DNA of 63,060 bases, the filler included, from Sphacelaria rigidula (taxonomy: Eukaryota), in assembly GCA_964200075.2 (NCBI GenBank). It is 7 parts of 7 records of this genome, joined end to end, with 100 filler letters (N's around TTAATTAATTAA, not from the genome) between each part and the next. Parts side by side here need not be neighbours in the genome. Positions count along the whole stretch, not along the records: positions 27,070 to 35,992 come from CAXNAA020009744.1; 6 more parts are not named here. One strand, given 5' to 3'. Of this stretch, positions 5,214 to 63,060 are shown one piece after another (within the stretch, counting starts at the first letter, position 1; every line of letters begins with the position of its first letter). The translations under genes were made by a program, and so were the position numbers. Under the pieces are notes generated by a model. That model saw only the letters and a list, made by a program, of their open reading frames with translations, was not told the origin of the DNA and ran no database searches.

Positions 5214-5852
5214 CAAACACGGGATTTTACAAATTGGGGATGTTTTTTTTATTGGGGATGAGAGCCCGGAGAATAAAAATCTTCGTATCCACCTTCTTGT
5301 TGCTCTTACCCGCTTTTCATGCGCGTTTTTGCTCCTCTGCGTTTTCTTTTTTATATTTTCTACGTTTTTCTTTTTATTTTCCTGCCCCTAGTTTGGACGT
5401 CGAAAGTTAAGCTAGGCTAGCTAGTAATACGATGGGGGATCACGTGCGGAGCCCTGACTTGACTTGACTTTTGAACAGAGCTCCCTGCGTGGTCCCCGTC
5501 CTCCATCGTAGTACTAGCCTGGCTGAACTTTTGACGTGAAACGTGAAACATGAACGTGTAACGTGTAGGGCTCTGAAAGGAGGACGTCTGTCCGTCTGCT
5601 AGTTTTTCTGCAGGTTTATTGCCCGGGGAAAACGCAAGTCTGCGCTGCGTCCTTTTGGAAATCTGCGCCCGACGATCCCAATTAAGCTTGATCCTCTTTA
5701 ATATCTTCTGCTGTATTTTCTGAAAATCTGCGACATATTTCGGTTTTCTCGCTGTTTTTTTCGCGGCCGTTTTTCTGCGCAAAAAAAACAGAATTCTGCC
5801 TTTTCTACCGCAGATGGAGTAATGGTCTAGATTTGTTGCCCAGGGTGTGGAG

Positions 5853-9023: not shown

Positions 9024-9094
9024 CTTTATTCTTTGGTATCGCCACTTCCAGAGACAGCCATGGGTTTTACACTGCCTCATGGGTGTCTAACCAT

Positions 9095-9189
9095 AGGGGG
9101 GTGGGGGGGTTCTCATGTGTTGCTTGCCTGAGTCGTTTGACCATTGACCACGCATCCCTTTCGAGACAGAGCAGGGGGCGGGGGGGGGG
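9095..9189 (-). mobile_element. 5'-truncated copy of the LINE-A 3' end between G-rich direct repeats
   Basis: Matches about 16197-16262. Flanked by AGGGGGGTGGGGGGG and AGGGGGCGGGGGGGG (degenerate TSD). Confidence 0.65.
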
Positions 9190-9740
9190 AGCTTTTTGGG
9201 TTGCTGGCCTCCATTCGCTTAGATATACCGACCCACCTCTATTCGTTCCGCGACAACGTGAAGACAATGCAGGCACCGTTCCAGGAAGGCCATTTTCTCC
9301 AACTGCTTGTCGTTCGTCTCCAACGTCCGTGTTCGCATCGTTTGCTTGCACCTGTTCGTTACGTTCCAGTTTTTTGTTTTGTCAGTCGTACTTTTATTCG
9401 AACCCTTCCTCTTCCTCGGGACGAGTCCGTGGTCTCTCCCAAGGGATCAACACAACCTATCCCTTCCCCGGTACTATACACGCCTCATATTTTGGTATCG
9501 CAGGTTGGGTTATGACCACTCCCGCATAGCGTTGACGCTCGTCAAACAAACTCAATCCAACAAACGACCTTTGCTACTCATGTATATCTTCACGTCTTCA
9601 AAGACGGAAATCAGGTTTTTGGGAGAAAAAACGCAAACGTATCTGGCAGGAACCTAACCCGCTCTCTTCCCACCCTACTGGTGTCGGCTACACAATTTTA
9701 ATTTAGACCGCCGGGATGCGGCGGCCAAAGTGCCGTTATT

Positions 9741-10172: not shown

Positions 10173-11463
10173 TATTGTTGTACGCAGCAGTCTGTCCCAC
10201 CGGGGGGGAAATGTATCGGAAGAGATACGGCGAATCACGTTCACATCACCGCAAAGATGGATAGGGTGCAGTACTGTATTCCAGGGCGCCCTAGATTTTC
10301 CAGGATATTCGCAGTGCCGACCAAGCCAAGGATCCCGACGACCGTAAATGTGGAGTTTTTCCAGGGTCGTCTTTTCTTCGGCGAGTGTTTCAGATTTGCT
10401 TTTCTTGGGTGCGTCTGTCATGCGACCACGGCTGGACCCATGGGTGTTCAGTTGAAGTGCGACAAGCAGTCAATCACATCGAGGAGTCAGGGTATCGACT
10501 GGAGAGCGATCCAGAGTATTCCAGGGCACCCAGATGGAATACTGACTAGTTGGTGGATTGGTCGATTGATTGTTGCACGTTAACATTGACTGATCCCCGA
10601 GAGATCTAGCCGCTGGTCGCAAGATTGGACGCACGTATCCCCAAGGTAATAAACCAGACGGAAACAGTCGCTGAAGGGAACTCGAGCAAGGGAGAAGATT
10701 GAGAGGGGTAGAACGGACGCGGCAAACTGAGCCGAAACCAGAAACGGCACGAAACAGAACAAAAGAAGGAAAGGGCAAAAATATATGGGAACACAAAAAA
10801 AAGTCCGTACGCATCACGTACACCTTTGCAGCGTTGCCACCAGAGTTCATGTCTGCGCCGTCAAAGCTGTCTCGCATCAGGATCAACTTTCCGTGCTCTG
10901 TTTTTTGGTGAATGGGAACCGATGGCCAACCAACAAATCAATTGAGCGTGTGTGGCTATATGAGATAACATTCCTGTCTACGGTACTGCAGTGTGTCGTA
11001 AATAACGTCTACAGTGCGTCAATGCCGTAGCAGCCCGCTTATAAGAAACCGAAAACCGGGCTTGGCCCGAGTTTTTTTTTATCTGATACAGCGAAGGCTC
11101 TCTTGTGTTGGACTTCGTGTAGCGGTTGCCGCTGAGGCTGAACGCTGCCTGACTTTTGTGGGAAACTTCAACCTGATTTTCTTCCAACGTCACCCCTCAT
11201 GAGCGGGCCGCTTCTGTATGTGCTTGTAGCGCTAGCAAATGTAGACTTGGTTTGGCTATTCCCTCGCGAGAAATCGACGGACTTGCGTGGTGGTTTTGGT
11301 GTGTAAACATAAGAAACCCCTGACGGTTCGTGCTAGACCTTCGGCTCCGATAGAGTACAGGGGCGTGAGTTCTCAGGCAGAGGTGACTTCATGCCCTCAC
11401 GCAAAAAATGTAGAGGGACTGTAGCGTATTTCCCAGTGGATGGGGGGTGTGTATCACCTTTTA

Positions 11464-11637
11464 GGGTGTACTCATGATCATGCATGCCATAGTCATGAGA
11501 CCATTGACCTCGCATCCCTACAATGCCGGGACGGAGCACGCCGGGCTTTCGCCGGACCAGGCTTGCACTCAAACCACCAGTGTTGTGTTCGGCGAGTCTC
11601 ATGAAGGGTGAGCTGCATCCTGTCAAGATTGTTCGGG
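11464..11637 (-). mobile_element. Family B short retroposon (about 200 bp); copies at about 20486-20516, 27161-27360, 29149-29202, 30116-30310 and 62033-62084 (opposite strand)
   Basis: Shared GGGTGTACTCAT...GCC(A/G)TAGTCAT..GACCATTGACCTCGCATCCCTAC..GCCGGGACGGAG, adjacent to G-runs. Confidence 0.75.
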
Positions 11638-12394: not shown

Positions 12395-14363
12395 CTGAGA
12401 CACGACAGAAAAGGCGAAAAAACAAATGCCCCCGAGTAATGAATGTACTTCCAGCAAGGGATCTTATCAGCGGGTCGATTTTTTCAGATTTCCGGGAAAA
12501 TGTTTTATTTTCTCGTTTCTGACTTGTTCTCCCTAGAACGAATTGCTGGAAAGAAAAAAAAACTCTCGACGATAGATTTTCGAAGAAATCTGTAGTCAGT
12601 CTTGGAATGATCTGTGGCCTGACCTGATTGCGAAACTGCTCTCATATTTTTTGAGAAAAAAAAACGTCCAGAACAATTCGGAGATTTCGGGGGAGGGGGG
12701 GAACAGACCCCTTATTGGGACCCCTGGAATACTAAATCTGCGCGATCCATCATTGAACGTGTCTGATTTTTTTTTAAGGTGTGCTGCCAAGGCTTAGTAG
12801 ACAAGACAATATCTATACACCGTAACCCGAAGCCATGCGGTGCTGGCGGAGGTTATCATCCACAGTCGCCGCTTTTCCCCATCATTATTTTCCGACAGCC
12901 GCTCCAACCACCGTTACTAGTCAGCGTTTGATAGTGAAGTAGGTTGGTGTGGAGGGGGAGGCATCATGCTCCAAAACTTCAGCGCTCACACGAAGTATCT
13001 AGCTAGTGATTTTTCCTCGGATAACGGTTAGGATGCTGACTTTTACTCATTGGGAAGCTTCGTACCCCTCGCTTATTCTATCCCATGGATATCACAAGCC
13101 AAAACGACGGTAAAAGCTATCCAAAATCCATTCCGATACCGCATCCAAACTGCCTGACATTCCAATTTAGTCGGACGAGTCGTCGCTGGTTCGAACCACC
13201 AAATCTACGATTTCTGGGGCCTGATTGCTCGAAAGCGAGGAAAACGATGACCGTGGGTCGAAAAGTCTCCACGAAAAAAAAAATCATCCCGCCTACCGGG
13301 GGTGCAACGCTGTAAAGAAAGTCCAAGGATTACGTCGTACGATACGAATCAATTACACTACAAGCAAGTAAATTCGAGACGAACCGTCATCCGTCCGACC
13401 CTTGCAATGTTTACACCGCCACTTTGGCCGTGCAGTAGCAGTGTTGGGTCCATCCGTGTGACAACGCAAACATTTTTTGTTGTTACTTGATATTCACAAA
13501 TGCACAAGTGTACTTACTTGCTGCGAAAAAAATTAGACATCCCACTATTTACAACTGCTACCTATTTGTGTCAAGACTACTGCTGTAATACAATCTCAAA
13601 CGATCCATCTTATTCGGCGCTGGATATCGTCATCACCGTGCACTCGTTTGAATAAAAACCATATCCTGGATGTCATCGTGTGCATGCATGATGAGTCATG
13701 CTACTGTAGGAGTGGCACATTTTGGGCCGAGATCTTTCGCATTCTGGGGCTCTTCAAGTTCAGAGCCGCACAAGAATACGGGCCAGGGCATTCCCGGGTC
13801 TCAAAGTAAGTCGGGATGTCCCAAGCCTATGGCAATGCTAATTGTGACCTCCTCTCACATATTTCGTACTTATTCGGCTTTTATAAGAGATAGAGGTTTC
13901 CCAACAATTCGAGCCTCAGAAAATATGTCTGCACCCCTACCGTAGAAATACTCGCACCCCGACAAACTTTGGCCCGGGAAAAGTAAACTTTGAACGGCAC
14001 CAACGGCGTTCATATTCGGCGAGCCAGACAGACTCTTGGAAAAAGCGAATAGATAGTAATGACAGTGCTTTCTGGTTACATGTATTTATTTTCTTCTTTC
14101 TCTCTTAGTCTACTCTGTTATTACTGTTCCGCTCTGCCTTCTTCTCTGTTGCTTCATTCACTTTTGTTTTGTCTCGGGTGCGTCTATCATGTGGAAAATG
14201 ACCACGGCTGGATCCTTGGGGGATCAGTTAAAGTGCGACAATCAAATCATACTGTTGCCGCAGCGCCCCTGGTGGTGGTATAAATCAAAACGATACACCT
14301 AAATGCCATTAGGTCGGAAATTCTAGGGCCGAAAACACGAGATCTTACAAATTGGGGATGGAT

Positions 14364-14730
14364 TTTTTATTGGGGATGAGAAACCCGGAGAAATAAAATC
14401 TTCGTATCCACACCAAATCTTCGAAACATGTTTTCATTTTTTCACCTACTGATAGCTATTGATAACTGCTACACGCCATAGAAATTTGGATTTCGATCCT
14501 ACGTGAAAAAGTGATTTCGGTAACATTTTGGCGTCCGTTCGGACGCCCAAAAATCCCCAAAATTGGTTTTTCACCTAGGACCCCAACATTTCGGTTATCG
14601 AGGTCCAAATTTGTATGACGTGCAATACTTGTCAAAAGCTATCAGTAGGTGAAGAAATGGAACCATATTCCGAAGATTTGGTGTGGAGACGAAGATGTTA
14701 ATTCTCCGGGTTTCTCATCCCCAATAAAAA
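14364..14730. mobile_element. Almost fully palindromic fold-back MITE
   Basis: TTTTTATTGGGGATGAGAAACCCGGAG...CTTCGTATCCACACCAAATCTTCG is mirrored at 14670-14730. Symmetry continues to the centre TTTTGGCGTCCG-TT-CGGACGCCCAAAA (about 14539). Terminal copies at about 5245-5292 and 26933-26969. Confidence 0.85.
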
Positions 14731-15826
14731 CCGGGCTTTTTGCGGGTTCAACTCTCTCACTGCCTTGAGCAAAGCTTTCCGAACGCTCGAGGCGACTTCC
14801 CCACATGAATGCCGTGAGGCAGTCTACCCGAGCCTGCAGGTATTCGGCACACGAACCCCTTCGCGGGGTAAGTGTTGGGTCAGGTTTCCGCCTTGCTCCG
14901 GGGAAGAAGAAAAAGAAACAGAAAAAACAAAAACGGACGTACGCGGGTTCGATTAATTCCCAGCAGATACTTCCTCTGTCCCATAAGTAAAGTCCGTTAT
15001 GATCACACGGGCCCTTAACCGTGACCAATGCCGTCGGTGATATTTTTTCTGGAATCTTCAGAGTTTTTTAGTTGAATCACGTCTTCTTTTTTTTCTGTTT
15101 GCGCAGCAGCCAGCGTGCGCGAACGGCCGATGAACGATCAGTCGTCCCAGAAATGGCTATTTTTCGCCCCTTTTCCACAACGCAGAGAAGAACCCTGGCA
15201 GCCCGAAAAACGGCAAAAATCGCGGGGAAAAAAGCATAGCTGGCTATTTTTCTCCATTCCATCGCTGGCATACGATAGCTACGCCTAGTCCGAAACCAAT
15301 CGTTTACATTGCAGCCTTCAATCACTTCAAAAAAGCCAAATTCATCGGAATTCGGCCGAAAATATACAGACTGGACGAAAATTGGTCGAAATTTGGCCAT
15401 GTTTGACTCAACGATACTGAAGTTAGAGGTTGTTTTTTTTTGTTTTGTTTTTTCCAGTGGCCATCTCCACAACTATATACTTTCAACGAACCTAACCATA
15501 ACGTCGTGGGCACCTCCGTTGGCGAGGTACGGCCTATTCTCCATAACGGACTTTACTTATGGGACAGAGGAAGTAGATGCGTTCGGATTTTTCTCAGCGA
15601 GTGATCTGCTTTCCGTCATTGAAAACCCAACGATGTGAGTAGCAAAAAAGAGTTTCGTTTGACGAGAGTCTACGTGATGCCGAAGTGCTGATAGTCATAT
15701 TCAAATTCGCGATACCAACTTGCGAGGCGTGCTTCCGGGGGAGAGACGGGTTGATCTCTTGAGATGGTGGACTCATCCCGAGGAAGCGGAGGAGTTGAGA
15801 GTGAGAAAAGATTACACTTTCTACGG

Positions 15827-15880
<54 letters not shown>

Positions 15881-15979
15881 ACCCCAACCACAACCCCCAA
15901 CACGCCACGCCCACNNNNNNNNNNGAGGAAGTGGGGGGGAAAAAAAAATACTCCTTCTCGCGCCCCCCCCCCCCCCCCC

Positions 15980-16196
15980 CCCGAACACCAGCCCGAAACT
16001 GTCCCGAAGTAAATGGTCATACAGCCCCTGATGTGTAGGTTCATGTTGCATGAAGCGCCTCATATGGGCGACATCGGCGAAAACGAACCGAAGCGTGGGA
16101 ATTGCCAGCTGCTCGTTGTGCTCGTTTTTTTCTATTTCGATGTACGTGTAGATTTTGCCTCCCCGAACCAGCCCCTCTTTTTTTTTTTGGGGGGGG
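15980..16196. repeat. Dispersed repeat of about 210 bp, shared with about 62085-62289
   Basis: Colinear GGTCATACAGC.CCTGATG...GTTGCATGAAGCGCCTCATATGGGCGACA...GTAGATTTTGCCTC, ending in TTTTT-G8 in both copies. Confidence 0.75.
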
Positions 16197-17946
16197 CGTA
16201 TTTATGTGTTGCTTGCCTTAGTCGTTTGACCATTGACCACGCGTCCCTTTCGAGACGGAGCACCGTTTCTACTCTTATTGGAGACACCTCAAGCATTCCG
16301 GCGCTCGTTACGTTTCTTCCATACATTGCACAAAAAACTTTTACATATCTTATCCCCGTCCTGTTTCGCCGTCTCTGGCCCCTATCTATCTCCTAGTGTA
16401 GTCATCGTTTTCTCCCTACTGTTTAATGCATCAAACGAGTTCATGCCACCTTCGTTCACGTCCCGCATCTCCCCCTCTAGCACGTCCCTCTCCTCCTTGT
16501 ATAGTTCATATTTTGCCAATATATGACTTCTGTTCTCTATTGCTTTGCCTCAGAGGCAATTCTGTGCATCTACTTGCTCCTCCCTTCGATCACTGGTATA
16601 TCTCTTTCTTGTTTCTGGCAGGTCCAGGCCCCCCACCCGAAATCGCAGTTCCAGATTTTTCGCCGGATCCATTGGGCCATGCAAAGATATTTTCATCCTT
16701 ATCCCCTCTTTCAACCACTCGTATATCTCCAGGTGTTCTTCCTCGTCTACTTTGCGTGTGAGCGCTCTTTCTCCCTTTATTTCGATAATGTATCTTACTT
16801 TTGTCTTGTACCCCGCGTCTCCACCGATGGACAGTATTTCGTCTTGGTTTCCTCCTATCTCCTTCCACACTTTCTCGACTTCTCTGTCCCGCCTTATAGC
16901 ATGCCCTTTCGTACTTTACTTCCACACAACTCTATCAACTATAGCTGGCAATCTCTTTCTCTGCATGTTCTTTACGCTATATTGCCATCTCAATGTCCTC
17001 ATGCCTCTGTTTGTTTCAAGTGAGTAAATTCCCAACTCTGCTCTCGGTGCTGTAATACTCGTCGTTTTCGAGCATCCAAGTATCTTCGTAGCTACTGCCA
17101 TCTGTCATGCTTCTAATTTCTTCACCAACTTCACGTTTCCCTCCCGTACTTTTCCCGCATATCCCAGCTTTGGTACGATCATATTCATCGGGATATATCT
17201 CTGAATCCTAGTGTCTACGTGCAAATCTGAGGACCACGTCCATCCTATCTGTGCCTTACCCTTTTCTAGTGCTTTGTTTATATGTGCGTACCAAGAACAG
17301 TCTCTTGAGATCTCTACGCCAAGGTATGCATACTGGTCTACGATCGGCAGTTCCTCTTCTCCCCACTTTCGCTTGAACTCTACCGGATTTTTTCTTATCT
17401 TCGTTACAGGCCAGTACCGCGCATTTGTGAATATTCGCTGTCACTCTCCATTTCCTAGCGTATCATAGCACACTTTCTTTTATTTTTTGCAATCCTTCTG
17501 CTGTTTCTGAAATCCCCACAAAATCATCTGCGAAGATCAATCCTGATTTGATTGATATTTCGATTGATTGTCACACTTTAATTGATCCCCCAGGGGTCCA
17601 GCCGTGGTCTCATGGTAGACGTACCCGGGAAAAACGAAATTGAAACACGCTCTGGGAAAAAAGAAGGAACACTGATATCGCATCTTTACCCACCTTGACC
17701 CCTTGCTCTGCTGCTTCTATTGCTGTTATCAAGTCATTGATAATTACCTTAAACCAAGTGGGTGATAACGTACATCCTTGTGCAACCCCTTGTAAGATAT
17801 CGAAATATTGCGATATTTCCCCGTCTAGCATCATGGCACTTTTGGCACATTCTGTCACCTTCACCGTTCTCCACATATTTCCTCTTATTCCAGCTTCCCA
17901 CAACTTCTTCCACAGCCCATTTCTCCATACTGTGTCATAAGCATTT
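16189..17946 (-). mobile_element. Degenerate non-LTR retrotransposon (LINE-A): reverse transcriptase, C-terminus and 3' end; 5' part cut by the contig end
   Basis: Minus-strand motifs AYDTVWRNGLWKKL, LQGVAQGCTLSPT, GLIFADDFVG, YLGVEI, RAELG, and a C-terminal Cys/His remnant. Contains stops and frameshifts. The 3' end runs into C8. Confidence 0.88.
17548..17671 (-). mobile_element. Family C retroposon fragment inserted into the LINE-A RT
   Basis: Flanked by CTGAT direct repeats (17543-17547, 17672-17676). Removing it restores DAISGLIFADD. It carries ACCACGGCTGGA and a TCAATC-type tail. Confidence 0.75.
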
Positions 17947-18734: not shown

Positions 18735-21700
18735 CTCTGCATCGACACCGGGCCCGAAGAAGTTGACGTATTTGTCGATACGCTCCGGTTCCACCCACCG
18801 CTTGAACGGCGTCATCTTAGACTGCCACACCATGGTAAATCCCAGCTCTCCGTTTGGCTCCACACTCTGCCGCAGTGCCAAGAGAAGGAAAACGAGAGGA
18901 AACAGAAAACAAATACACAGTCAGCAAGTCGGCAGGGAAGGGGAGGCAGAGACAGGATCACGAAGGGGAAAAGGCAGAGGACAAGGACAAGTGACAAAAG
19001 CTTCTATAGCGACAGACAGAAAATAAAAAGGGAAATGGGAGCAACAAGATCACCGAGCGGAGTTCCATCACCAACGCGGTACTGACGGGAGCTTTCATAC
19101 ATGAACGACCCGAAATCGTTTCGCGATGCGAAAAAATGTTATCCCGGCATCGACGGAGACGGCCCCGAAAAAAACGAGTCAAATCCAGCTACTTTCCAGA
19201 AAACAGGAAGCGCCGATCGATGTAAAGCGTTCGTGCAAATCAATCTCAAAAAGTAAGAGTGATCAGCCTACAGACAGTAGCGGGTATACCAGCTCCTTCC
19301 CCCACCCCCCCACACCTGTGAAAGGTACTGTAGCTGCGGGTAGTCCGACTGCGGCATGACCAAGCCAAGGGTCTTCACCGTCGTGTCCAAGTGTGCCTCA
19401 TCACCATACCGGTGTCGTGTTACATCGTTCTTGATGGCGCGTATCGTCTGCAAAAAAAAAGGCGCGGAACGCACCCAGGATAACCCCGCGTGCGAAGGTG
19501 ACGAGCGGTGGCGGGAGGTCGCGACAGCATGTGTAAGTGTGCATTGCTGGGGATACGGAAAAATAGCACACGCGCGCAGCGAGGGTGCACGGCACGGATG
19601 CGGCAGAAGAAACGTCCGCGTCTTGCCGCGCGGAAGGGTCGGCCGATAAACGAAAAATGCCAGTAAAATGCCACAAAACGTTCCAACATCAACCTACCTA
19701 CGGTTACATACATGTAAACCTTACACGACCTGCAAAAACTGCTAGGGATTCTCCTCGGTAGAAATGTCAAGTGAGCGAGCGTCATCATCGTGGCTTCTTC
19801 TCTCTGGGACTCTTGGTGGCAACTCCTAACCCGACATGACTTACAAGGCACGAAGAATAGGTCACGCGGAATCGGCCATTTTACGACACAAGAGCGCACA
19901 CACACACACGCATACAACTACCGTGTTCTTCTAGAACAAATTGGTGGACCTGCACTTTTATTGGTGTATCCGTCATCGGCAACGTAACTCAACATACCCA
20001 CATCATCTCACCGCGGGTGTGACAAGAACCAGCCTAGACAACGAGTCTACTCGAAAAACGCACATGAACCGTGAACGCCCACGACTCAACACCCACACAC
20101 ATACACACCGCAGTCGCCTTCTCCTCAAACAAGGCTTCCGCCTCCGGACTGGTCTGCAGAGGCGCCGGTGGTAGCTCGGCGTATTTAAGCGCGAGCCCCA
20201 CAAGCATGATGGGGATACCGTATACGAAACCGATGCCCGACAGCCCCCCGGAGCCGCCGGTGGAGAAGTACTCGAAGAACGACGCTGCCGTGACGCCAAT
20301 GCCAGCGATCGCCGCGGCGTTTGCAAGCGAGAAGCCCCGGATCTCGAACGGTGCTTCGCCAGAGACGTTGATGCCGCCCGAGGCCCACTGGCTGGGCCCC
20401 TGTTGTTCTTGCTCCATCTGAATTTCATGTGAAGAACAGTGGGGCGCGCGGGGTGTAGGAGTGCGTTCGTGTGTTGGTGTGTGTGGGGGATTGTACTCAT
20501 GATCTTGCACGCCGTACGAGCTTGACAGGGCTTCCAGAATGTTTTCGCGTCCGGCGGTGCTGAACTTGAGGAGTTTTAGGCGCTGAAATTTTGACACTGA
20601 CATTTGTTTTCATCACCAACATGCGCAACATTTCTCGGGATGCTAAGAAAGAAAAAAACAGAAAGTTGGAGCGATTTAAATTTCAGCCAAAACTGGGAGA
20701 CAGTCACAATTCTGTAAAGAAAACCAAAAACGGCGGCATTCCCAGAAATGTTGTAGGTACTTGTGTGCAGGAGATCCTGGTGAATATTTGGCCGAAAACT
20801 CCTAAAATTGGGCCCAAGCCTGTCACTTTTTGTGTGTCATCACTGCGCTTGCGCTTGCGCGCGCGCGTGTGTGTGTTTCCTCTGCATCCTCCATGGGGTT
20901 GCGCGGGTTGATGATGAAGATGTGTCAAAGCTTCAGTGTCCAACTCTTTGAAATACCAACGGCATCTCCCCTCTTCGTTCAAAACTCACTGTCAGCTGGC
21001 CCAGCTCGTACTCAATTACAATGTTTCCGTTACACAACGATAGGTGGATCCAACGCTTGGGGAAGGATGTGGACCCAAGTTCCATACTCGTCATACTTTC
21101 GACCTCTTTCCATGGGAAAGTGTCTGTAGTGTTACAGGGTCAATTCGTCTCTCCACTATAATAGTACCCTACCTGCCATTTTGGTAACGCGGATTGGATC
21201 AGCCCTCTCGCATCGCGATAAATATATTCAATTTTTCGTCGTTACGTCCTCACGTCTTTCACGATGGAGACCACATGTCGAAAAGAAAAACACACGTCAT
21301 GTTTCGAACCGGCAACCTTCCTTTTGGCGGCAGTTTCATGGGTACGGGTCAAATTATATCACGTACACACTGATTTCAAGGAATTTAATAAAAAAAAATT
21401 GACTAGTGGCTCGACATTATTCAACGCATTACATAACGCAAACTTGGTTTTGGTATGGACTTCCGTCACGCTTGTGTTCGCGGGCCTACTGCAACCCGCA
21501 GCCGCACTACAGTACCGTGCTGCGGAGAGATGGTATCCAGGACAACAACGGCCTCACAAGGAGTGCTTCGTCTTTCTGTTCAAGGATTGGTGTACCCAAC
21601 GTTCGCTATGGGCGTCGTCGTGTCTGCGGTGTGGTTGCGGTGGCCGAGGTTGGCGTTGCAGTTTCCATTTGCGCCTGGCTTCCTCCTGTATCCTGCACGG

Positions 21701-25332: not shown

Positions 25333-27094
25333 GCTTCGTTTCTCTCGATGGTATGCTCAGGTTGTACCAGAGGATTTCTGCTGTGTTTGCCGTCAATGCG
25401 CGGTTTGACAGCCGAGTCTCGCTATAAGGTACGCATTATACTAACTAAACGTTCCCGCAACACCCCTGAGTTATTTTATAACTTAGGTACGATGAATAAC
25501 GACCTTATTCCATGCGATCAATATTGATGCCGTGCAATTTCGATCTTCGATCGATCCGGTTATCAAGACTCTCAGCACTAAGCTCTGCCTTGGGATGCAT
25601 TCTAGAAATATACTCAATTGACTCATTTTGAAAATAGAGGTACCCACACTGAGTAGTGTTTTCGTGAGATTGAGAGTAGATGATACGATTGAGAGTGGCT
25701 TTGATCATTCGCATTATTAAGTGAGCCATTTATTTTTTTATTCCACGTCCTGACGACGTGTGCTTTTCTTTTTTACCTCCATCATCACTTACTTGCGTGT
25801 GCTTACAGCTACACATCGATATCCTACCCAGGGATATCAAGGGCCTCAGTGGCCAGCTATTGCAGAAAGCATGTTGGGCCTCGTGGAAGTGCATTTCGGA
25901 ACTGAAACGATTCATTCACTGATTGACCGCTTTTCACTCTCAATCGTATCATCTACTACTACTCTCAATCTCACGAAAACACTGTTGTTGTTGTTACTGG
26001 CGGAGGCACGCGTAATAAGATACCTGCGTGGGAACTATTATTGACTGACGTGGATAATTGACTAAAGCCGGGAAATGCCGCCAACTATTCTCCGTTTCCT
26101 CGCTCCACAGCTGCTTTGGAATCGGTGTCACAGTTACTTTACATCCGAAAAACAAAAGAACAGGTCGTCCACAGCAAAATACTTTCATTTTTTTAGTTGT
26201 CAGGACCAGACGGTTCTCGCAGGGGATGTTACTTCCCGGAAATTGGTCGGAAATAACGGGTTTTCGGCTGCGTACAGCGAGTTAGAATTCCCGAAAAACT
26301 GCTTCAAATGAACAGCTAGCTTTTATGAGGAAAACGATCGGGATTATTGGTTCCAAGCTCATGTATGTATGAAAGAGACCGAACCTGGGACTGTGTACTC
26401 TCAAGACCCTCCACGACCATTCAGCCTGTACGAGCTGGGCCAGCCGAGAAGAGGCGGATTCGAAGTTTGCAGGCCCATCCTCCGGCCAATATATATTTAG
26501 AGTTGCAGCGTAAAATTTGGTATGGACAATGCATAGGGCATGAAGAAAAAAATTACGTCGGTACCATAATTTTGTTTTTTGTTTTTCTTCCTCCATGAGT
26601 TTATTAAGGGCATTTTACTGATTCCCGAAAACCGATTATTAACAAAACTCAGTGGGTCAGTTTTTTTTCAATTATGTTTTTCACGGAGTCAAGACGTTCT
26701 AGTATAGTAAAGACCATTTCTTCACGAGAACGCCCTAACCTCTATGAAAAAAAAAACTCATTTTTTTTCAATTCGGCACACCATCTCCGTCGTTCTCCTT
26801 GCTAAGTGTCAAAACACAATCAACAGCCGATTTTCGAAAATAAATGGAGTTGAAAAAAAGAATGAGGTTCAACTCAAAAGCCGTGCTTTCCCTGAAACAG
26901 CCAATCATCTATGTTGAGGATGGTGCTTTTCATTGAGGATGAGAACCCGGAGGATTAAAATCTTCGTATNNNNNNNNNNNNNNNNNNNNNNNNNNNNNNN
27001 NNNNNNNNNNNNNTTAATTAATTAANNNNNNNNNNNNNNNNNNNNNNNNNNNNNNNNNNNNNNNNNNNNTGGTCGGTGGGGCGGCGCGGCGGGG

Positions 27095-27132
<38 letters not shown>

Positions 27133-27643
27133 GGTCGGGTCGGTCGGATGGTCGAGGGGGTGGGGAGTGTATCCATCATCTTGTATGCCGTAGTCACATG
27201 ACCATTGACCTCGCATCCCTACGAAGCCGGGACGGAGAACGCCGGTTTTACGCCAAACCAGGCTCGTGAATCATTCACCAACCGCGAAGCGCCGTGATAT
27301 GCGTGGCGAGTGGCATGAAGGGTGGGCTGTATCCTGCTGAGATTGTTGGGCCCGAAGCGTACGGATTATCTCGCACATGGATGACAGCCTACAATGAGTT
27401 GCTTCATTCTCTGGTATCGCTACTCCCAGAGACAGCCACGGGTTACACACTGCCTTATGGGTGTTTCTCCATATGCCGTCGAGGGAAAGGGGTGGAAGGG
27501 GAAGAGGGGGGGGGGGGGGGGGGCTTTGTTGTTGATGGGGGTGGGGGGGGGGCGGGGGCGGTCATGGCAATGTCTGGGTGTAAATGAGAGANNNNNNNNN
27601 NGGTCTCCCGGCCGTAGGTAGTGCTGTGGGCGGCTGTGGGTTG

Positions 27644-27708
<65 letters not shown>

Positions 27709-27799: not shown

Positions 27800-29700
27800 A
27801 TACAAGCTGGTCTTGCCAAAAATGCCAAGAAGTGCGTGATTCCTCCACCGCTACGTTTCACGGGGTAGCACAACGGAGTGAATATGGCATATCTTATATC
27901 CACATGAAGTTATGAAACCAAAGCGAACAAAATTCCGTGACCCGATCTCTCCGGCGATCTCCAGTATGCCGCCTGGTCGAGTGTCACTTCATCCCCTCTC
28001 GGTTGGGAAACAAGACGAGGATGATTCACCAGAGACTCGATGATGCATGTACCCACGATCACCTTGGCGTAAAACTACAGACCAGCTCCACAGTCACTGG
28101 CTTCCAAGAACTCTGGCTTAGCTTCACTTATAGGCCAAGTAGCGCAAAATATTTCTGCATTTGATGATAGCACAGCGGTGGCCAAAAACTAGATGCCTGG
28201 GCACAGTTTTTACTCCAGTGAAGACAATTTCGACGTGAAGCTCATCGTTCAATCGTTTTTTGCACTGTCCAGTTTCGAACTTCATGAACCGACATATTTT
28301 TAAATACCTTTGCATCCATGGTACGAACATCCGCACTGTACCACACCGTTCATTTTGTATCCACAGCTTGAGGCCGAGGTGTTCAATATACAAAATTTTG
28401 GAGGTGTGCCACTAGAGCAAAGAATTTTGAATGATTCATCAACTCGACGTTGAAGACACAAAATTGACGCACCACTGTTGTTCGTACTGTGAGTACCAGG
28501 ATGTGCGTGAAATCTCAGCCTCGAACTTTGAATCAGGGCCGGCCAAAAGCTTTTGAAAAATGATTGTTGTCCTCCTCCACAGACGAGGTTCGGGAATTGG
28601 TCGCAACGCGTACAAAAGAAGGGAAGCGAACCGTCTTTTGATAAAAATCATATGCTGTACATCTCGGGTCGAAAGGGTGGGTACAAGAAGATAGTATGCC
28701 CCGCCCGTTTCGACGCCGGACATGTGTACACAGACTTCATGGATATCTCGATTTATCCACAAAAACCAAACCTGACACAGCATAATATCCGACATACACA
28801 CAAGTTTTCTGGTGCAATCTACGTCTCGCGGAAGGTACAATGACTTGCTACAGAGGCAACGGAGTGAGTTCTCGTCGTTGGGAGCATCTCGGAATAACTC
28901 ATCGTCGCAGGCCCATTGAACGGCACCCTGCATACTCTAAAACGGCACTACACCCACTACGCCATCATCACTTGCAAGGCTTTGCAGCGAACCAGAAGAG
29001 AAGCCACTCTCGAATAAGTGCAGCATGGAGCACGAGAGTAGTGCCGTAATCGTACGGTGGGCAGGAGAAGAAGCGGTGCTGTTCCAAAACGTATATAGGA
29101 CATCGGCAACACAGTGGGGGTATTTCCAAAGTACGGTCCGCTAAAGTAGGGGGGTGTACTCATGATCACGCATGCCATAGTCATCAGACCATTGACCTCG
29201 CATCCGCTAAAGTAGGGGGGGGGGGGTCCTACCACCGTGCGGTCAAAAATTACCCAGTCACGAGTCCGCTGTACTATTATCAAGTAATTTCACAGTATAT
29301 CGCGGAGTTCAAGCATAGTGCCGTCATATTGGGTTGGCAACCCCCACACCATGTCAGGATCCTCACTGTATCTCGAAATCATCAGGCACCAGTGGATATC
29401 TGTCTCGAATACCACGGATAGATGAGATGCCACAGATGGGAGAGGGTAGTTGTGCCAAAAACATTCGTCTACTCTCACCTGGGCAACCTTGTGGCACAAG
29501 TATAGATGCAGCAGATACCCGACATACGACGCGTGGAACGCGACGTTAGGAACGTTGGGGACGATAACTCTGTGGGCCAGCGGATGGGAGTCTTCGTAGA
29601 ACCAGAGCTGAATCGAGCACCGCAACACGGCGACGCCGCAGGCTGCCAGCAGAGTCGAGAAAATTCGCTGCGGTCAAGTTTGTGTGGATAGTTTGCGCGT
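27800..29700 (-). pseudogene. Highly degenerate LTR-retrotransposon (Ty3/gypsy-like) integrase remnant
   Basis: Fragments LWFYEDSHPLAHRVIVPNVP and KLLAGPDSKFEAEISR loosely resemble the integrase N-terminal region and the core SDRD.RF motif. Many stops; boundaries approximate. Confidence 0.3.
29137..29220 (-). mobile_element. 48-bp 5'-truncated family B insertion with an 18-bp target-site duplication
   Basis: TCCGCTAAAGTAGGGGGG occurs at 29137-29154 and 29203-29220, flanking 29155-29202. Confidence 0.85.
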
Positions 29701-32445
29701 GTGGTATCGACAACAACCGACAAGTTTTTTGGGGGGCCAGGGAGAGGGCGGCGGCGAGGGGATGGGGGGGGAAAGTTTAGTGTACACGTTGTACTACATG
29801 CGCGGGGTCAACGATTCTTTTATTCCTGAGTAACGAGGAAAATGAAATAGGATAAGCAACATCACAGGTGATCCACATTTTCAGTCAGTGAAAAGGGGGT
29901 TAAAAGATGCCAACAACTGCGCGTTACCTGGCAAATTTTGTACTGTAGTGTAGTGTCAGACCATAACTGAACGCTGCTTTTTGTTCCACTTATTTGTTAA
30001 AACAGGCACTTTTCGAAAGAGGCGGTCGGTCGGACGTAGTTTCATACGATTTGGATTGAGACCGCATCTCGAAACAATATCTTCGGGTCACAGTCCCGCG
30101 TAGAATTGGGAGGGAGGGGTGTACTCACTATCTTGCACGCCGCAGTCATAAGTCCATTGACTTCGCATCCCTACGAAGCCGGCATGGAACACGCTAGGTT
30201 CTCCCCGGGCCAGGCTGGCGATCAATCCTCAAGCGCAAAGCGCTGTGATGAGTTCGGCGAGTCGTATGAGGGGTGATCCGTATCGTACCAAGATTGTTCG
30301 GCCCGAAGCGCACCCATGATGGGGAGAAAATTGCTGAGGCGCTGCGGCGGCGCGCCGAATTCCAAGCATGTATGAAAAATATTTTGGCGATCGGTGGCTG
30401 GCCACCGAAGTCAGTTGTAGAAGCCGCCGAATGTTTTGAGACCTGAGGCTGCTCATTCGGCGGGAATACCAAGCTGGCACTACACAAATTTGGTCCGAAG
30501 CGCACGAAGGAAAATGCCCCTGGGGATGGCAGGGGTATCACCACAACTGCTATGACTTGATTAATTCATTTATGATGACCCTCTAACGCTTACACTCCAA
30601 GGATGGAATCATTTCATCTCCACTCCAAACGCGATCGGGAGGGTGCTATCTACCGTTTCTTGGTCTGTACTTACGAACGACTATACCCTGGGGGACACGA
30701 CAGGGATCACTAGAGTGCCTATTACTGACGGAAATGTGGTGGGGCGGATCATTGTCTACATTCCTTTATATTTTCCCGGATATGGTTCTAAAATATATAG
30801 GACCAGTCGGTCACATAATAGCTGCTAGAACCTTCATCTGGCGTTTGCACCGGCCTTTGTCACCCAATTCTCACCACAGTTGGGCCCATCCCCACTAATT
30901 TGTTTTAGAATCGATCCCCTGATTGGGAATCTTATTAATCGTCTGCAAATTGTCGAATTCGACACATCACAAGCACAAAAATAGTCATTATCCACAGTAA
31001 AAAAACGCCTCGGATTCGGAGTCTTCACTGAATATCTAGACGGACTGCATTTTTTGTCTCAATTTTGAGAAATAATTTTCGGTGCATGGCACTGGCTTAG
31101 GTGATGGTGGATCTGCCCTGTGGCCCTAAGGTACGATAGGTACTGTACGTTCTGTACTGTTTTACTATTGTATATTGTGCACTGCAAAGCGAGTACACTG
31201 CAGTATAGTACACAAGTTCCGCAGGTATCCTGTCATAGTAAGGTGTGGCGGGTTGGCAACCTCGTGTGATCGCACTATCGCGGGACCCTGCACTGTGGTG
31301 GGACCCCCGCGGCATTGTATTTACTGTACAGTATCTACTATCGCCATTATATAGGGTATCCACCTCTCAAAACAGGGTTTCACCCCCTATCCCGCCCTCA
31401 GCCTTGCACACAAGTATTGGATGCGGTTCCCCCTTCCTCCAAGGAGAAAAAATAGTCAGCTTTCATCAGCTTGGCGGGGGTGGTATTGACCGTATGCAGT
31501 TGGGCCTGCGGGGGCTTCGTTACCGCAACGCCTTCGGCGGCCGCGGAGAGGCTCTAGCCTGGTCGATGCAGCAATACGCGCCTACCCACAGCGGAGGCCA
31601 ATACTTCCGATCCATATACGGTACACATAGTACGATAGAGTACAGTGCCTCGTGTGTCGCCTATTCGTTGTACTTCGTACAAACCGTTACGCCATTATGA
31701 GTGTGACGCTGTTTAACACCCATGGGCAGGTGATCCAAGCTATTCTCATCGCGATTTCTTGGAGGCCAGGCTGTTGCCAAGTGTTATGTCCGAAATGATC
31801 CGATCAAGCTCCTACCGATAAAGGGGTTTCTTTCTGGGTATGAAACCCCGGTTATACTTCGACACGGGCTTCATAGAAATCGCATACTCGTACGGTTTGG
31901 GGGGTGGAACGCCATCACGTTGCGTGACCCTTTAGAACTAGCGTAACTTATACTTACACTGAACATCTTGCTCTGTTGTTGGGCTTCATTCCCAAGCGAG
32001 GCTACCACCTTCGCCTGTTCGTCCGAATCGAGCGGCAATATATCAGGAGTAGGTAAAACACTACCCTGCCCAGGCCTCTGGCGAAGCATACTGTCGTAGT
32101 GTGGTGTACTGTAACGTACTGGCCAGTTCAAGGTGCGCTAAATACTGTTCCGATGTACTATAGTGTACCCCCGGCGGCGTATCCGATTTTCAGAGGAGTT
32201 TTGACACCAGAACAGTACGGTATCAACATTTTTGTCATGTGCCAATCGTGCCCGATTTCGACTGACGCATATTGGCAGATGGCACAAACAGCAGTGCACC
32301 GCATCTCCTGACCTTGTACATAGCAACCACAGCATCGCTCAAGACGCCAGATCTACCCTGAAACGGAGAAGAATTGCGGTCTGGTATCAGACATTGACTT
32401 CGGCAGAGCCGTCGTCATCGCCATCGTACCCCAGGACAAAGCAAA

Positions 32446-38870: not shown

Positions 38871-39430
38871 CCGCTGTTCCCGGGTGCGTCGCCGCTGTTC
38901 GCGGGTGCGTCGCCGCTATTCCCGGGTGCGTCACCCCTATTCCCGGGTCTTCGCCGCTATTTCCGGGGTACGTCCCCGCTGTTCCCGGGTGCGTCACCGC
39001 TGTTCCCGGGTGCGTCACCGCTGTTCCCGGGTGCGTCGCCGCTGTTCCCGGGTGCGTCGCCGCTGTTCCCGGGTGCGTCCCCGCTGTTCCCGGGTGCGTC
39101 GCCGCTGTTCCCGGGTGCGTCCCCGCTGTTCCCGGGTGCGTCGCCGCTGTTCCCGGGTGCGTCGCCGCTGTTCCCGGGTGCGTCGCCGCTGTTCCCGGGT
39201 GCGTCCCCGCTGTTCCCGGGTGCGTCGCCGCTGTTCCCGGGTGCGTCACCGCTGTTTCCGGGTGCGTCACCGCTGTTCCCAGGTGCGTCGCCGCTGTTCC
39301 CGGGTGCGTCCCCGCTGTTTCCGGGTGCGTCGCCGCCGTTCCCGGGCCCGTTACCGCCATTCCCGGGCCCGTTGCCGCCATTCCCGGGCCTGTTGCCGCC
39401 ATTCCCGGGCCTGTTACCGCCATTCCCGGG
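38871..39430. repeat. 21-bp tandem repeat, about 26 units, encoding (PGNSGDA)n on the minus strand
   Basis: Unit CCGCTGTTCCCGGGTGCGTC(G/A/C). It explains the overlapping long ORFs on both strands. Confidence 0.95.
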
Positions 39431-41192
39431 AGTGTTGGTCGCTGGCGACGGCATCGGCGTCGGACTCGGCACCGGGGTCGGCACCGCGGTTGGCGCTGAG
39501 GTCGGGAGAGGGTTCGCCGTAAACAGGAGCAGCTGTACCTCACAGATGCGCGTCGCGCTCCTGCAGAAGACGGGGAAGGTCTGCGACGGGGTCCACACAG
39601 GAGTGAAGGTGCCAAACACGGGCGGGGTGCGAAGGACGACCTGGCCATTGACGGTCGCGACCAGGAAGGGGTTCAATTCGGCCACCTGCATACCCCGGCG
39701 GTAGATCGTCACGCTCACGATGTCTATCCTCACCTGCGATACGCGGACAAAAAAACAGCGGCATTCGCGACGAGGGCGAGTCGTGAGCGGGCCGGTAACG
39801 GTCGGGATTAGTATCATCGTCTCCCCACTGCTTCGTCGGGCGTGCTCGGCTAGTTCAAAACAGTGTCCACCATCAGCACGAGGCATTTCGACGGCCGCTA
39901 CTTTCCCCAATCGCTGACCCCAATGAGCGGGAGCAACGACGACCCGACCTGTGCCCTGCTCTTCGCGCTCGTGATCGTACTGAGTCCCCCCCATCAAAGT
40001 TTTCACGAGAAGAGGTGGCACCGCGGCCCACCATGCTACGCGCAGAAGTGCACGACAATAACGAAATCGGCGACACAGCTATCAGACCCTGTACACGCCG
40101 TCCCGCCAACATGGCCTCAACCCATGCTCGAGGGCCACAGTACATGCTCCCGTGAGACAGGAAACGACATCGAGATACTCTTGGCGTATGGTAAGCCCGC
40201 GGTGGGCACCACGTTGCTCACATTGATCACCCCCCGGAGCTGAAGACCGCGGGACGTCCCACTCCCCGCTGAGGTGGCGGCTTGCTCTTCTCCGGTCGTT
40301 TCCGTCAGCCTTCGATTCAAAATCACCACGACGGTGACCTGTCCAACCGGGATTCCAGTCGCGTCCACCAGGAGGACAACAATGGTCCGGCCGACCACCA
40401 GGTCTGCGATTTGGATAATTCCGCCGCCGATCGCGAGCCCGGGGATTCCTACCGTGCGTATGGGCAAGTGACAGTGACGACACGGTCGGCCAAAACCGAG
40501 AGGGTTTCCACCAGGTCAGCTGTGTAAAACGAGCACATGGTACACCCCGACCGGGCGATGGCTGGACGAGTACACCGCTGAGCGACCGGACCGAACGGAG
40601 TCACTGGGCACGGGAGCATCACTGGGCACGGGAGCATCTTACAGAGGGATTGCCAACGCAGAGTCACCGATCGACGGTGGCGTGGCACCATGTTTTCCCG
40701 CAACCCGCAAATTACACGCTACTCCTCGCGACACGTGGCATCACCGTGGGACAAACGTTCATTCGACACTCCTCCTTTTTCACCAGGGATCGGAAGGATG
40801 ATAAAGCCTTCCTCCGACGGGGCTGGCGTTGGCTGCGTTGTCGCAATCGGCGCCGGCGTCGCTGTCGGCGCCGGCGTAGCGGTTGGGGCCGGCGTGGCGG
40901 TCGGGGCCGCTGTTGGTGTAGGTGGCAACTTGATTTTTCCTGCAGGGGAAGTGGACGGAGTTCCCGCACACGCAGCGGCAACATGGCGCGGTGTCGACGT
41001 GGGGGCAACGAGCGCGGGGCAACGCATAAATCTCAAGGGATTGCGGTGTGTCGCACCACTGCGGCAAACATGGTGCACCTACCGCTTTTCTTCGGCAGCA
41101 TCTTCGGAACGTGTGGACGCTCGTCTTGTCTCTACACGCGCGGCACACAGTGACGAATTGCACTGCTGCCGTCAGCGCTGGCTACGGCATGG
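38957..41192 (-). pseudogene. Probable pseudogene of a secreted/surface protein with C2-like domains, Pro-Thr linkers and (PGNSGDA)n repeats
   Basis: Exon 41192-41083 has an in-frame TAG and is cut by the LTR. Exon 40939-40784 encodes PTATPA repeats (phase 1-1). The exon from 40519 is frameshifted near 40465. The exon from 39733 encodes a C2-like PFLVATVNGQVVLRTPPVFGTFTPVW, then the PT and PGN repeats. Confidence 0.6.
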
Positions 41193-49668: not shown

Positions 49669-49799
49669 GGGGGGGCGTACTCATTTGTTGCTTGCCTTAG
49701 TCATGTGACCATTGACCACGCATCCCTTTCGAGACGGAGCACCGTTCCTCCTGCTGATGGAGACACCTCCAACATTCTAGCGCTCATTACGTTTCTTCC
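49669..49799 (-). mobile_element. 5'-truncated LINE-A 3' end; further copies at 53969-54038 and, degenerate, at about 62972-63003
   Basis: Colinear with 16189-16320 and begins at a G-run. Confidence 0.8.
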
Positions 49800-50618
49800 G
49801 CAGCCGAGGCCTGCCAGCGGTCTTAATCCCTTGGGAACCCCCCCCCTTCCGTCCCTGGGTCAGACGCCTCATTATTTCAAGCCTTGACAAGAAAGAAAAG
49901 GCGGAAAGAGAAAAGACCGACGGCAACCATTTTCACGGCGGAAGGCCAGAGAAGAATCCACCAGCATACGTCATGCGCGCACCAAAAATGTCATCCCGGT
50001 GCAGTCAGATAAGTTTTTTCCAGTTAGGGACGCAACGAGTCAAGTTTGGTCAAGCTTGCGCACACAACCAAAATCAGCACTTGGGTGCCTGAAGTCTACA
50101 CAAACAAAAATGAGCATCACCTTTCTATTTTCTATATACGGAGTCCCGTGCGGCACTGGGGCACATTTTTATACGGGTCTGAAAAACACGAGTCAGGCTA
50201 ATAGTTTTGCGTGAAAGCTGTGAATACTCAACCATACATCGTTAAAAATATAACACCTCGAAATCCACACGTTTCCATTGACAGTACCAAAAGGGTTAAC
50301 CCGCGGAAAGACGACCGAACCAACGATGGTGTGGCAGGAAAAGAGGTTAGAAACACTAGCCCGGGCCTTGTGTCGACGCGGATCCTGAGTTTGGCCGATA
50401 GGAGGTATGGTAGTCACGAGAATCAATGTAGTTCGTATCGCACGAAACTGCGGAGGATACCACCTCCACCCCGACTGCCCATACTGGAGTGGGCAGAAGT
50501 CCGCCAGGGATCTTACCCCACGAAAAGTTCATTCAACAACAACGGCGAAGACACGCGCCCGAGCCCCGTATCAACGGGGAGTCTGAGTTGAAAGTTAGGA
50601 GGCACCGCGATCGCGAGA

Positions 50619-53600: not shown

Positions 53601-53968
53601 CGCGTGGGCATACATCAGAACGTTTTCCCGAGAGTTCTTTGGCTGACCGAAAGCACCGTGGAGACTCAAGGTCTGACTGCTTAAGGTGGCGGCGATGGAG
53701 GCCCTACTGTACGGATGCAAGACGTGGGCCCCACGCCGCGAGCACTACCGGTTGCTGAGGACGGTACACTACCGGCTCCTGCTGCGAGTTATCGGGTACC
53801 GCCGCGTGCGTGCCACATACCGATAGTGTCTGTACGCCCAGGCCCTCAAGAAGACTGGGTGCCAACGTGCTGAAGCCATCGTTCGAGAACGGCGACTGCT
53901 GTTCGCAGGAGCCCTGGCTGGACAACCGGACGGACGACTACCGAAGCGACTGGCATTCGGAGCACTCG
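50619..53968 (+). mobile_element. Degenerate RTE-like LINE (apurinic endonuclease + reverse transcriptase)
   Basis: EN motifs AYNVRTL, GLQETRR, GVGLAIK, IDYVL and SDH. RT motifs [46 protein letters not shown] and FRYLG. Many stops and frameshifts; 5' boundary uncertain (may extend to about 49800). Confidence 0.9.
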
Positions 53969-54199
53969 TGGGGGGGGGGGGCGTACTCATTTGTTGCTTG
54001 CCTTAGTCATTTGACCATTGACCACGCATCCCTTTCGANNNNNNNNNNNNNNNNNNNNNNNNNNNNNNNNNNNNNNNNNNNNTTAATTAATTAANNNNNN
54101 NNNNNNNNNNNNNNNNNNNNNNNNNNNNNNNNNNNNNNCGTGAGTTGACGCGGTGCGGGAGTACTGGCCCAATCCGCCAGACCAAAATGTAAGGCGCGT

Positions 54200-54280
54200 A
54201 CCAGGGGAGAGATGGGCTGATCCCTTGTGACCACGGACTCATCCCGAGGAAGTGGAGGGGTTCAAAGTGCGAAGAAAACA
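54200..54280. repeat. Dispersed repeat fragment shared with about 15735-15820 and 57572-57650
   Basis: Shared GGGGAGAGA.GGG.TGATC.CTTG.GA...GGACTCATCCCGAGGAAG.GGAGG core. Confidence 0.55.
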
Positions 54281-61719: not shown

Positions 61720-63060
61720 CTGAAAGCCATGATCACGAGAAGTGTCAGCAGTTGATGTGTATATAACCTAGGGACAATTGACTGATAACGTTCATAAGCT
61801 GAACAAAACTTCAGTACTTCGTCTGCACCACCATGTATCCCAAATATATTTCTGGTCGTCAACGAAAAAGGCAGCGGCGTGGTGAGAAAGGAGACGGAGG
61901 GATTGCTAAGAAATCTCTTCCGGTACCCCAGGAGACGATTCACCACACCCTACCGCAGCACCACTATTGTCCCCGGAAGAAACGTCAACAGCGACGGATG
62001 ATATTTCCTGCAATAATCCCCATCTGAAACCCTGCGAGGTCAATGGTCTTATGACTACGGCATGCATGATCATGAGTACACCCCCAAAATCAGCCTAAAA
62101 CTGTCACGGCGAAAAGGGTCATACAGCGCCTGATGTTGGTTTCAGGTTGCATGAAGCGCCTCATATGGGCGACACCGGCGGAAACGAACCCAAACGTGGG
62201 ATTTCCCAGCTGCTCGTTGTGCTTGGCCTCTTTCATTTGGATTCACGTGTAGATTTTGCCTCTCCAAACCAGGCAATTTTTGGGGGGGGCATTGCAGAAA
62301 GTGTCGGATACGCAAGTACCACGCGACACGGGGTACAGCAGCCACTCATATGTACTCCCCCTCGCCCGGAGCGACTATGTTGGTGTTGTCTCGGAAGCAA
62401 TGCCATAAAGCCACTTAATCATTTTGCCGCCACTCCACAGAATAATTTATGCGTGATGAGTTGACAGTTTCACTACCAGGCTGAAAAGTATCTCTTGGCG
62501 AAGTATGGAAGGGAAAACGAACCGTTTGGTAACTCTCCACGCCAAATGTTGAGACAAACACGTTATGCCGCTGTCATTTGGCATAGGCATACGAAGGCCA
62601 TTAGATGCTGTCTCGCGTACTGGCACACAACATGGCGTGAGCTAGAAAAACACTGGTTGTGCGCTCATGCACAGCATCTGGTGTCGCGCTAAAACTTCGA
62701 AAAAGACAGCACGACAATATGGAGGATAATTTGTTCACAGTCGAGGTTACGTCTTCAGCGAACAGCCGAAATCTATGATTGTGGTATGCAAAGTCAGTAC
62801 ATGCGAGAGGGTAACTCATGTCCGACTCTGTGCCAATCAGGTGCACACACGTTTGGTTCAACCTGAGCTCTTGGCTCTATGTGAGAGTCTGCTGCAGTTT
62901 AACACCCACCGAACCAGTAACAATGGGTGTACAATCATTGATACAACTGAAAAAAAAGTCAAAGCTGATGAGGGGGGGGGGGGGGGGTACTCATTTTGTT
63001 GTTTCCTGATGTGTGGGACCTTTAAAAAGGGTGTGGTGCGCTCGGGGGGGGGGGGGGGGG

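Follow-up and report, generated by a model that had tools for sequence, protein, structure and literature searches.

Footprints of a C-tailed LINE and its probable non-coding partner at G-runs in the Sphacelaria rigidula genome

The 48-bp insert found between two exact repeats in a 63,060-nt stretch of the Sphacelaria rigidula genome (seven parts of assembly GCA_964200075.2 joined by filler; hereafter the window) is confirmed as real and as one case of a genome-wide pattern, and the evidence supports reading it as a retrotransposition footprint. It is likely that this insert, the 3' tip of a non-coding element named family B, was copied into a run of twelve G's (G12) by the protein of a LINE, family A, via target-primed reverse transcription. 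Copies of the two families have one polarity, a shared 3' end and variable 5' truncation, duplicate 7-18 bp of target running into G-rich sequence, nest beside one another and, in most callable copies, carry an excess of G on the tail side.

A duplicated target around a truncated family B copy

An earlier note on this DNA had described the locus as an 18-bp target site duplication (TSD) around a 48-bp 5'-truncated family B copy, and the sequence bears this out. The 18-bp repeat TCCGCTAAAGTAGGGGGG is exact, its two copies are spaced exactly 48 bp apart in the window, and the downstream G-run extends to G12 (Table 1). The non-G 12-bp portion of the repeat occurs only twice in the window, both times at this locus, while 5 mononucleotide shuffles yielded no close 18-mer repeat and, for 12-mers, 20 such shuffles yielded 0.6 close repeats per window. 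The TCC microhomology noted at the 5' junction also holds: TCC at 29203-29205 is compatible with both the family B element and the target sequence and, since the CTCGCA-TCC continuation is present in 41 of 47 B copies, the insert measures 48-51 bp and the TSD 15-18 bp. The six G's on the tail side are all accounted for by the G12 target, so that an oligo(C) tail cannot be demonstrated from this copy alone.

The locus was also searched for in four other sequencing runs (X3 to X6). In both X3 and X5, contigs cover the unique left flank and continue for 23 nt into the insert, which is below the 31-nt bridging threshold, with 0 differences for X3, a run possibly related to the source of the assembly, and 8 differences in 510 nt for X5. 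The length of the focal G-run slips, as seen in one X3 contig (Table 1), and in each of the four runs the loose contig ends at the focal tail position consist of G-runs. An empty allele would give a joint that bypasses the insert; none was found in X3-X6, but since the unique flank is not covered here in X4 and X6, this is no evidence that such an allele is absent.

Table 1. Coordinates of the family A and family B features in the window
Feature	Position	Strand	Remarks
Family A 3' fragment	9108..9173	-	nested insertion: sits in the G-run that borders B-short copy 9024-9095 at its 5' junction
Family B copy, 170 bp	11467..11636	-	
Family A LINE copy, decayed, 5'-truncated	16197..17942	-	C-terminal half of RT to 3' end, aa 821-1359 of P0002
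Family B fragment, 25 bp	20492..20516	-	weak match, E 0.0055
Family B copy, ~308 bp	27168..27475	-	both sides G-rich
TSD copy, element 3' (tail) side	29137..29154	+	exact repeat; 12-bp unique part + G6
5'-truncated family B fragment, 3'-terminal 48 nt (51 with the TCC microhomology, to 29205)	29155..29202	-	49/51 nt shared with B copy 11467
TSD copy at the 5'-truncation junction	29203..29220	+	exact repeat; first 3 nt (TCC) common with the element
G12 run, inferred pre-insertion target and primer strand	29215..29226	+	2 bases shorter in one X3 contig
Family B copy, ~193 bp	30120..30312	-	
Family A 3' fragment	49676..49805	-	...GCVVNGHMTKASNK-stop, then GTACG, C7
Family A 3' fragment	53982..54038	-	at a G12 run inside a decayed, different (RTE-like) LINE
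Family B fragment, 48 bp	62033..62080	+	followed by C5

G-runs on both sides of A and B copies

The genome (244 Mb in 27,214 contigs) contains 2,955 exact A end motifs and 1,574 exact B end motifs, and GGGG adjoins 2,295 of the 2,955 A ends. An unselected sample was assembled from 60 systematically spaced contig stretches and the window, giving 596,304 bases with 65 A/B ends. Among the 59 of these ends with intact end and flank, 45 show 7 or more G's among the 10 nt next to them (background 0.6%), and none is C-rich. Extrapolation from 55 ends in 534 kb leads to about 25,000 ends genome-wide, a figure good to an order of magnitude only as the sample favours contig starts. As for the window, the earlier note had counted about eleven A/B copies abutting G-runs in the same polarity; the polarity stands, all A/B 3' ends having at least GGG on the tail side, while the count comes to 10, three of them weak (GGG only at 11467, interrupted G's at 20492 and 27168).

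Enrichment of G on the tail side alone could be explained as the element's own tail, and the opposite side of the copies is thus more informative. From pooled loci with 177 A/B ends, 164 of them intact, 128 copies could be evaluated (36 were left out owing to contig ends, N's or library size). A GGGG is present no more than 29 nt from the 5' junction in 90 of the 128 copies (30/45 unselected ones), against a background of 8%, and CCCC in 3. The same holds for the 5' ends of the short form of family B (B-short): a hand count found GGGG within 17 nt, across differing spacers, in 85 of the first 100 listed, and CCCC occurs at 1 of 175. The presence of GGGG at the far junction across unrelated spacers indicates that G-runs are the target, and not merely the tail, as the note had proposed. 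In addition, G outnumbers every other base at all of the first ten positions that follow the unique part of the TSD, the targets being G-rich purine tracts, such as GGGGAGGGG, that reach beyond the duplicated part.

TSDs were called on the non-G part only, with permutations as the null. Duplications of 7-18 bp were found in 18 of the 128 copies, compared to 1.05 by permutation, with two calls doubtful (L119 and L014); a stricter caller, relaxed because it missed interrupted G tails, gave 11/128 compared to 0.53. In 13 of the 18 copies the target side continues with three or more G's (background 1.5%). Among 20 young A copies chosen only for their consensus end, 7 of the 18 evaluable ones have a TSD, against 0.18 by permutation. 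Calling TSDs across copies was a check put forward in the note. Against the reading, a TSD with a unique part was callable in just 3 of 45 unselected copies, the focal copy among them; age and all-G duplications may be responsible for this low rate. Nesting is recurrent, another A/B end lying within 50 nt after 17 of the 128 copies.

The 18 copies with TSDs also bear on the oligo(C) tail that the note had presumed. The tail side holds more G than the target supplies in 14 of them, by two or more in 12, and intact relatives of the LINE end in C8 and C10, which together support such a tail; the remaining four, including the focal copy, which by itself gives no indication of a tail, have no excess, and homopolymer slippage blurs all these counts.

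Family A is the 3' end of a C-tailed LINE

Family A corresponds to the 3' end of a LINE with a single ORF coding for an endonuclease and a reverse transcriptase (RT). At one locus (L078/L091) an RT domain is followed by the A end and then by C21. The A end codes for the final residues of the ORF, followed by the stop codon, GTACG and C's, the stop lying 5 nt upstream of the C-run in the window copy at 49676 as well as in two intact metagenome relatives. It follows that the G-run side is the 3' end of the element, and the polarity assumed in the earlier note is thereby fixed by the orientation of the LINE ORF. The intact relatives, on two metagenome contigs, have open frames of 1,253 and 1,426 aa followed by C8 and C10; the 1,426-aa frame (L177) terminates at the family A terminus, and L175 has an intact ORF as well. 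The homologs P0002 (1,360 aa) and P0003 (1,328 aa) are single ORFs with Exo_endo_phos (PF03372) and RVT_1 (PF00078) domains and no ORF1, and the best PDB match is L1 ORF2p (E 6.6e-21).

Genome copies of family A align piecewise to aa 284-1360 of P0002. They combine a fixed 3' end with variable 5' truncation, ranging in length from 25 to more than 2,000 nt, and the best short-end copies are 85-94% identical to each other. None of the copies scored in the Sphacelaria genome is an intact LINE; the sampled copies are decayed, and most matches contain stops. The copy at 16197-17942 has an unrelated repeat inserted near 17545-17650, and its 5' side stops at an N gap. No stable shared 3' RNA fold was found (z 0.14, -1.31 and 0.26). 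In a quick RT tree, computed without bootstrap, family A clusters with proteins of Ectocarpus sp. CCAP 1310/34 (SH-aLRT 100), apart from the genome's other LINE group, of which one copy ends in (CAA)11 as Ectocarpus RTE does. P0006 is 61% identical to family A and terminates in a similar RVVNG motif. The RTE-X label was assigned by elimination against the entries of the Ectocarpus table (PMC12477816), the tree holding no named RTE-X sequence.

Some further features of these LINEs were recorded. A G/R-x-VVNG-like motif near the extreme C-terminus of the ORF is kept in many homologs (P0001-P0046), distant ones included, and overlaps the 3' stretch common to family B. In young A copies (L255-L274) and in the unselected sample, 5' truncations cluster about 60-72 nt from the 3' end, close to the limit of A/B homology; this applies to 13 out of 20 young A copies by our own boundary calls, and the cluster may mark a stall site of the RT. 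Several distant metagenomic relatives (among L181-L231) end in (TC)n, (CA)n, (TG)n or (ACA)n, often at a contig end, so tail repeats seem to vary widely among distant members.

Two other candidates were rejected. The endonuclease ORF at 50592-51326 was ruled out as the parent of family A: the RT belonging to it (52503-53162) has 28% identity with P0002 and groups in a different clade. The known end of the decayed RTE-like LINE in question (50592-53960, plus strand) carries a G12 run with a family A fragment. A second C-tailed family, suggested by C-runs about 1.0-1.2 kb after the RT in L064, L070, L076 and L081, was likewise dismissed; homology runs past the C-runs in L064, L076 and L081, which are therefore internal.

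Family B shares only its 3' end with the LINE

Family B is non-coding and occurs as a form of about 300 bp (B-short), with a fixed 5' end represented by 175 exact matches, and as a long form (B-long) of about 560-575 bp, the long copies measuring 546-573 bp. It matches the LINE only in its last ~52-55 nt (75-81% in alignments that span this stretch in full; 45 of the 56 columns aligned with A are identical), and no other LINE similarity was found beyond this terminal stretch. Six of ten long copies (L004, L012, L025, L026, L131 and L150) carry a direct repeat of about 50 bp, one copy at the 5' end and one just upstream of the LINE-like 3' tip, stopping ~55 nt before the 3' end. A SINE with a tRNA-, 5S- or 7SL-derived head was considered and discarded: four B-long loci gave no match to Rfam families, and relaxed ARAGORN matches to tRNAs appeared in 3 of 10 copies at inconsistent positions and with inconsistent anticodons. 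As a separate observation, a DUF2854 exon (E 1.1e-13) lies at 20037-20609 (minus strand) of the window, and the B fragment at 20492-20516 falls in the same open frame, upstream of the domain.

Proposed mechanism and alternative explanations

We infer a course of insertion in which family B is mobilised in trans by the family A protein, and which includes a G-strand nick, pairing, early termination and a microhomology join. The LINE protein would bind the shared 3' ~55 nt of A or B RNA, and its APE-type endonuclease would nick the G strand within a G-rich tract. The freed ...GGG-3'OH would then pair with the C-run of the RNA and prime the cDNA; this C-run was probably transcribed from the donor copy's own tail, rather than added by a polymerase. 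Synthesis would halt early, in the focal copy after 48-51 nt, and the matching TCC triplet would allow the cDNA to join at a second nick, 15-18 nt upstream, giving rise to the duplication. As each new tail is itself a G-run, copies would land beside older copies.

A broader reading, which we advance tentatively as a real possibility, is that the RTE-X LINEs of brown algae form a G/C counterpart to L1, one in which the site is picked by pairing between C-tail and G-primer and not by the endonuclease, and in which insertions seed new G-run targets, so that the family feeds its own niche and explains a fifth to a quarter of the long G/C homopolymers and many of the short-read assembly breaks observed here. 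The G bias might instead be set by an endonuclease preferring G-rich tracts, or their structure, with tail-primer pairing incidental and the C tail produced by copying and slippage at the target. This appears rather unlikely, and it differs from the pairing reading only in which step selects the site. The targets speak in its favour, being G-rich purine tracts past the duplicated part with G commonest at positions 1-10, as do the distant relatives with (TC)n or (CA)n ends, since tails then appear to mirror targets in the wider group. On the other hand, a tail-side G excess is present in 14 of 18 copies, and the L1 endonuclease is described as promiscuous in vitro, with priming proposed as the filter (PMC12809410). 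Sequence alone cannot separate endonuclease from pairing as the selector of G-runs, and for L1 as well the respective parts of the two in target bias are, according to the same source, still debated (PMC12809410).

Both explanations just weighed take B as a LINE partner. It is highly improbable that B is, instead, a non-autonomous Penelope-like element (PLE) of the Chlamys type. Chlamys elements do insert at (C)n (PMC8557442, PMC9977147) and are listed in Ectocarpus (PMC12477816), and the ~50-bp direct repeat near both ends of B-long, seen in 6 of 10 long copies, looks like a pseudo-LTR; however, this repeat ends ~55 nt before the 3' end, the terminal ~52 nt of B match the LINE 3' end, the RT element that shares this end has an APE domain, Rfam gave no match in four B-long loci, and the 3' end listed for Ectocarpus Chlamys-1 is (A)n (PMC12477816). 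It is also highly improbable that the focal event stems from repair, with 18 bp duplicated locally around templated sequence, or from misassembly at the G-run. In favour of such an origin, the insert is short and shows microhomology, and 13 of 49 element ends lie within 150 nt of a contig end; yet the insert begins exactly at the family 3' terminus, no fewer than 25 called copies show this structure, and the X3 and X5 contigs cross the left flank 23 nt into the insert, short of the 31-nt bridging rule and with X3 possibly related to the source.

Comparison with known systems

The earlier note knew of no well-described LINE with G-run specificity. This part of it has to be abandoned, as Ectocarpus RTEX-1/2 and RTEX-N1/N2 are listed with (C)n 3' ends or C-rich TSDs (PMC12477816). 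In Supplementary Material 3 of that work, RTEX-1_Ec32 is entered as 'single EN-RT ORF; (C)n 3'' and RTEX-2_Ec32 as '(C)n termini/TSD'. RTEX-N1_Ec32 is a non-autonomous, tandem element of 607 bp whose 60-bp 3' end is 83% to RTEX-1/2, RTEX-N2_Ec32 is non-autonomous and 188 bp long, and all of them are given C-rich TSDs (PMC12477816). RTEX itself is a Repbase clade (PMC5753468). The G-run/C-tail specificity is thus already catalogued for Ectocarpus, as table entries only; a mechanistic study of C-tailed LINEs was not found in listings of the open-licence literature.

Compared by their descriptions rather than by sequence, family A and RTEX-1/2_Ec32 both combine one EN-RT ORF with a 3' end in (C)n and a C-rich TSD, and differ in the host and in the state of the copies, decayed in Sphacelaria against 4,100 intact RTE-X copies in Ectocarpus (PMC12477816). 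Family B, again going by descriptions, resembles RTEX-N1/N2_Ec32 in being non-coding, with a 5' head of unknown origin, a C-rich TSD and tandem arrangement, and in having a ~60-bp 3' end in common with the LINE (83% in Ectocarpus, ~80% for family B). It differs in occurring in a long and a ~300-bp form, the latter with a fixed 5' end, and in the ~50-bp internal direct repeat, which the entries of the Ectocarpus table do not mention (PMC12477816). Families A and B very probably correspond, as a system, to RTEX-1/2 and RTEX-N1 of Ectocarpus. In conclusion, the focal copy is a well-preserved example of a system that is general in the Sphacelaria genome and whose specificity is known from a related alga.

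With human L1 and Alu the system has in common an APE-type endonuclease and an RT, a homopolymer tail that meets a complementary run at the nick, TSDs of variable length, and 5' truncation with microhomology. An A tail and a T primer (consensus 5'-TTTTT/AA, as given in PMC12809410) are replaced by a C tail and a G primer in family A, which moreover has no ORF1 and whose partner B shares a specific 3' sequence, not just the tail. Chlamys elements are similar in inserting at (C)n and in leaving short 5'-truncated copies (PMC8557442, PMC9977147), and differ in their GIY-YIG endonuclease and PLE-type RT, as opposed to the APE domain and LINE RT of family A.

For the debate on endonuclease versus pairing, a LINE that has a C tail, targets G-runs and is represented by intact ORFs provides a clear-cut comparison from nature. 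If pairing picks the site, a tail swap on the intact ORFs (L175, L177) would retarget insertion.

Homopolymers, contig ends and further repeats

The proposal that these insertions contribute to the many G/C homopolymers is upheld in part. A/B ends account for 35 of 177 runs of G>=8 and for 27 of 110 runs of G>=10 in the sample, which is a minority share, and some of these runs are pre-existing targets. The system has thousands of copies and is found at many long G-runs and contig breaks, and is relevant to the assembly and annotation of brown-algal genomes.

Many contig breaks coincide with A/B copies and their G-runs: 13 of 49 sampled 3' ends are no more than 150 nt away from the end of a contig, and the majority of the listed B-short 5' ends are also close to one. 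Runs of C or G as long as 40-63 nt occur at 15830-15885, 27091-27130 and 27646-27708, with lengths that are possibly unreliable in short-read data. Scaffold gaps, for example near 17946 and 54039, are N-runs with an internal TTAATTAATTAA linker, an assembly joiner. The window also contains a 21-bp tandem array at 38871-39437, with about 26 copies and open frames on both strands that have no Pfam match, and four dispersed repeat families, located at 5215-5292, 14333-14411, 14683-14730 and 26914-26969; at 10385-10471, 14157-14245 and 17562-17648; at 9397-9553, 15650-15807 and 54168-54273; and at 15979-16197 and 62081-62290.
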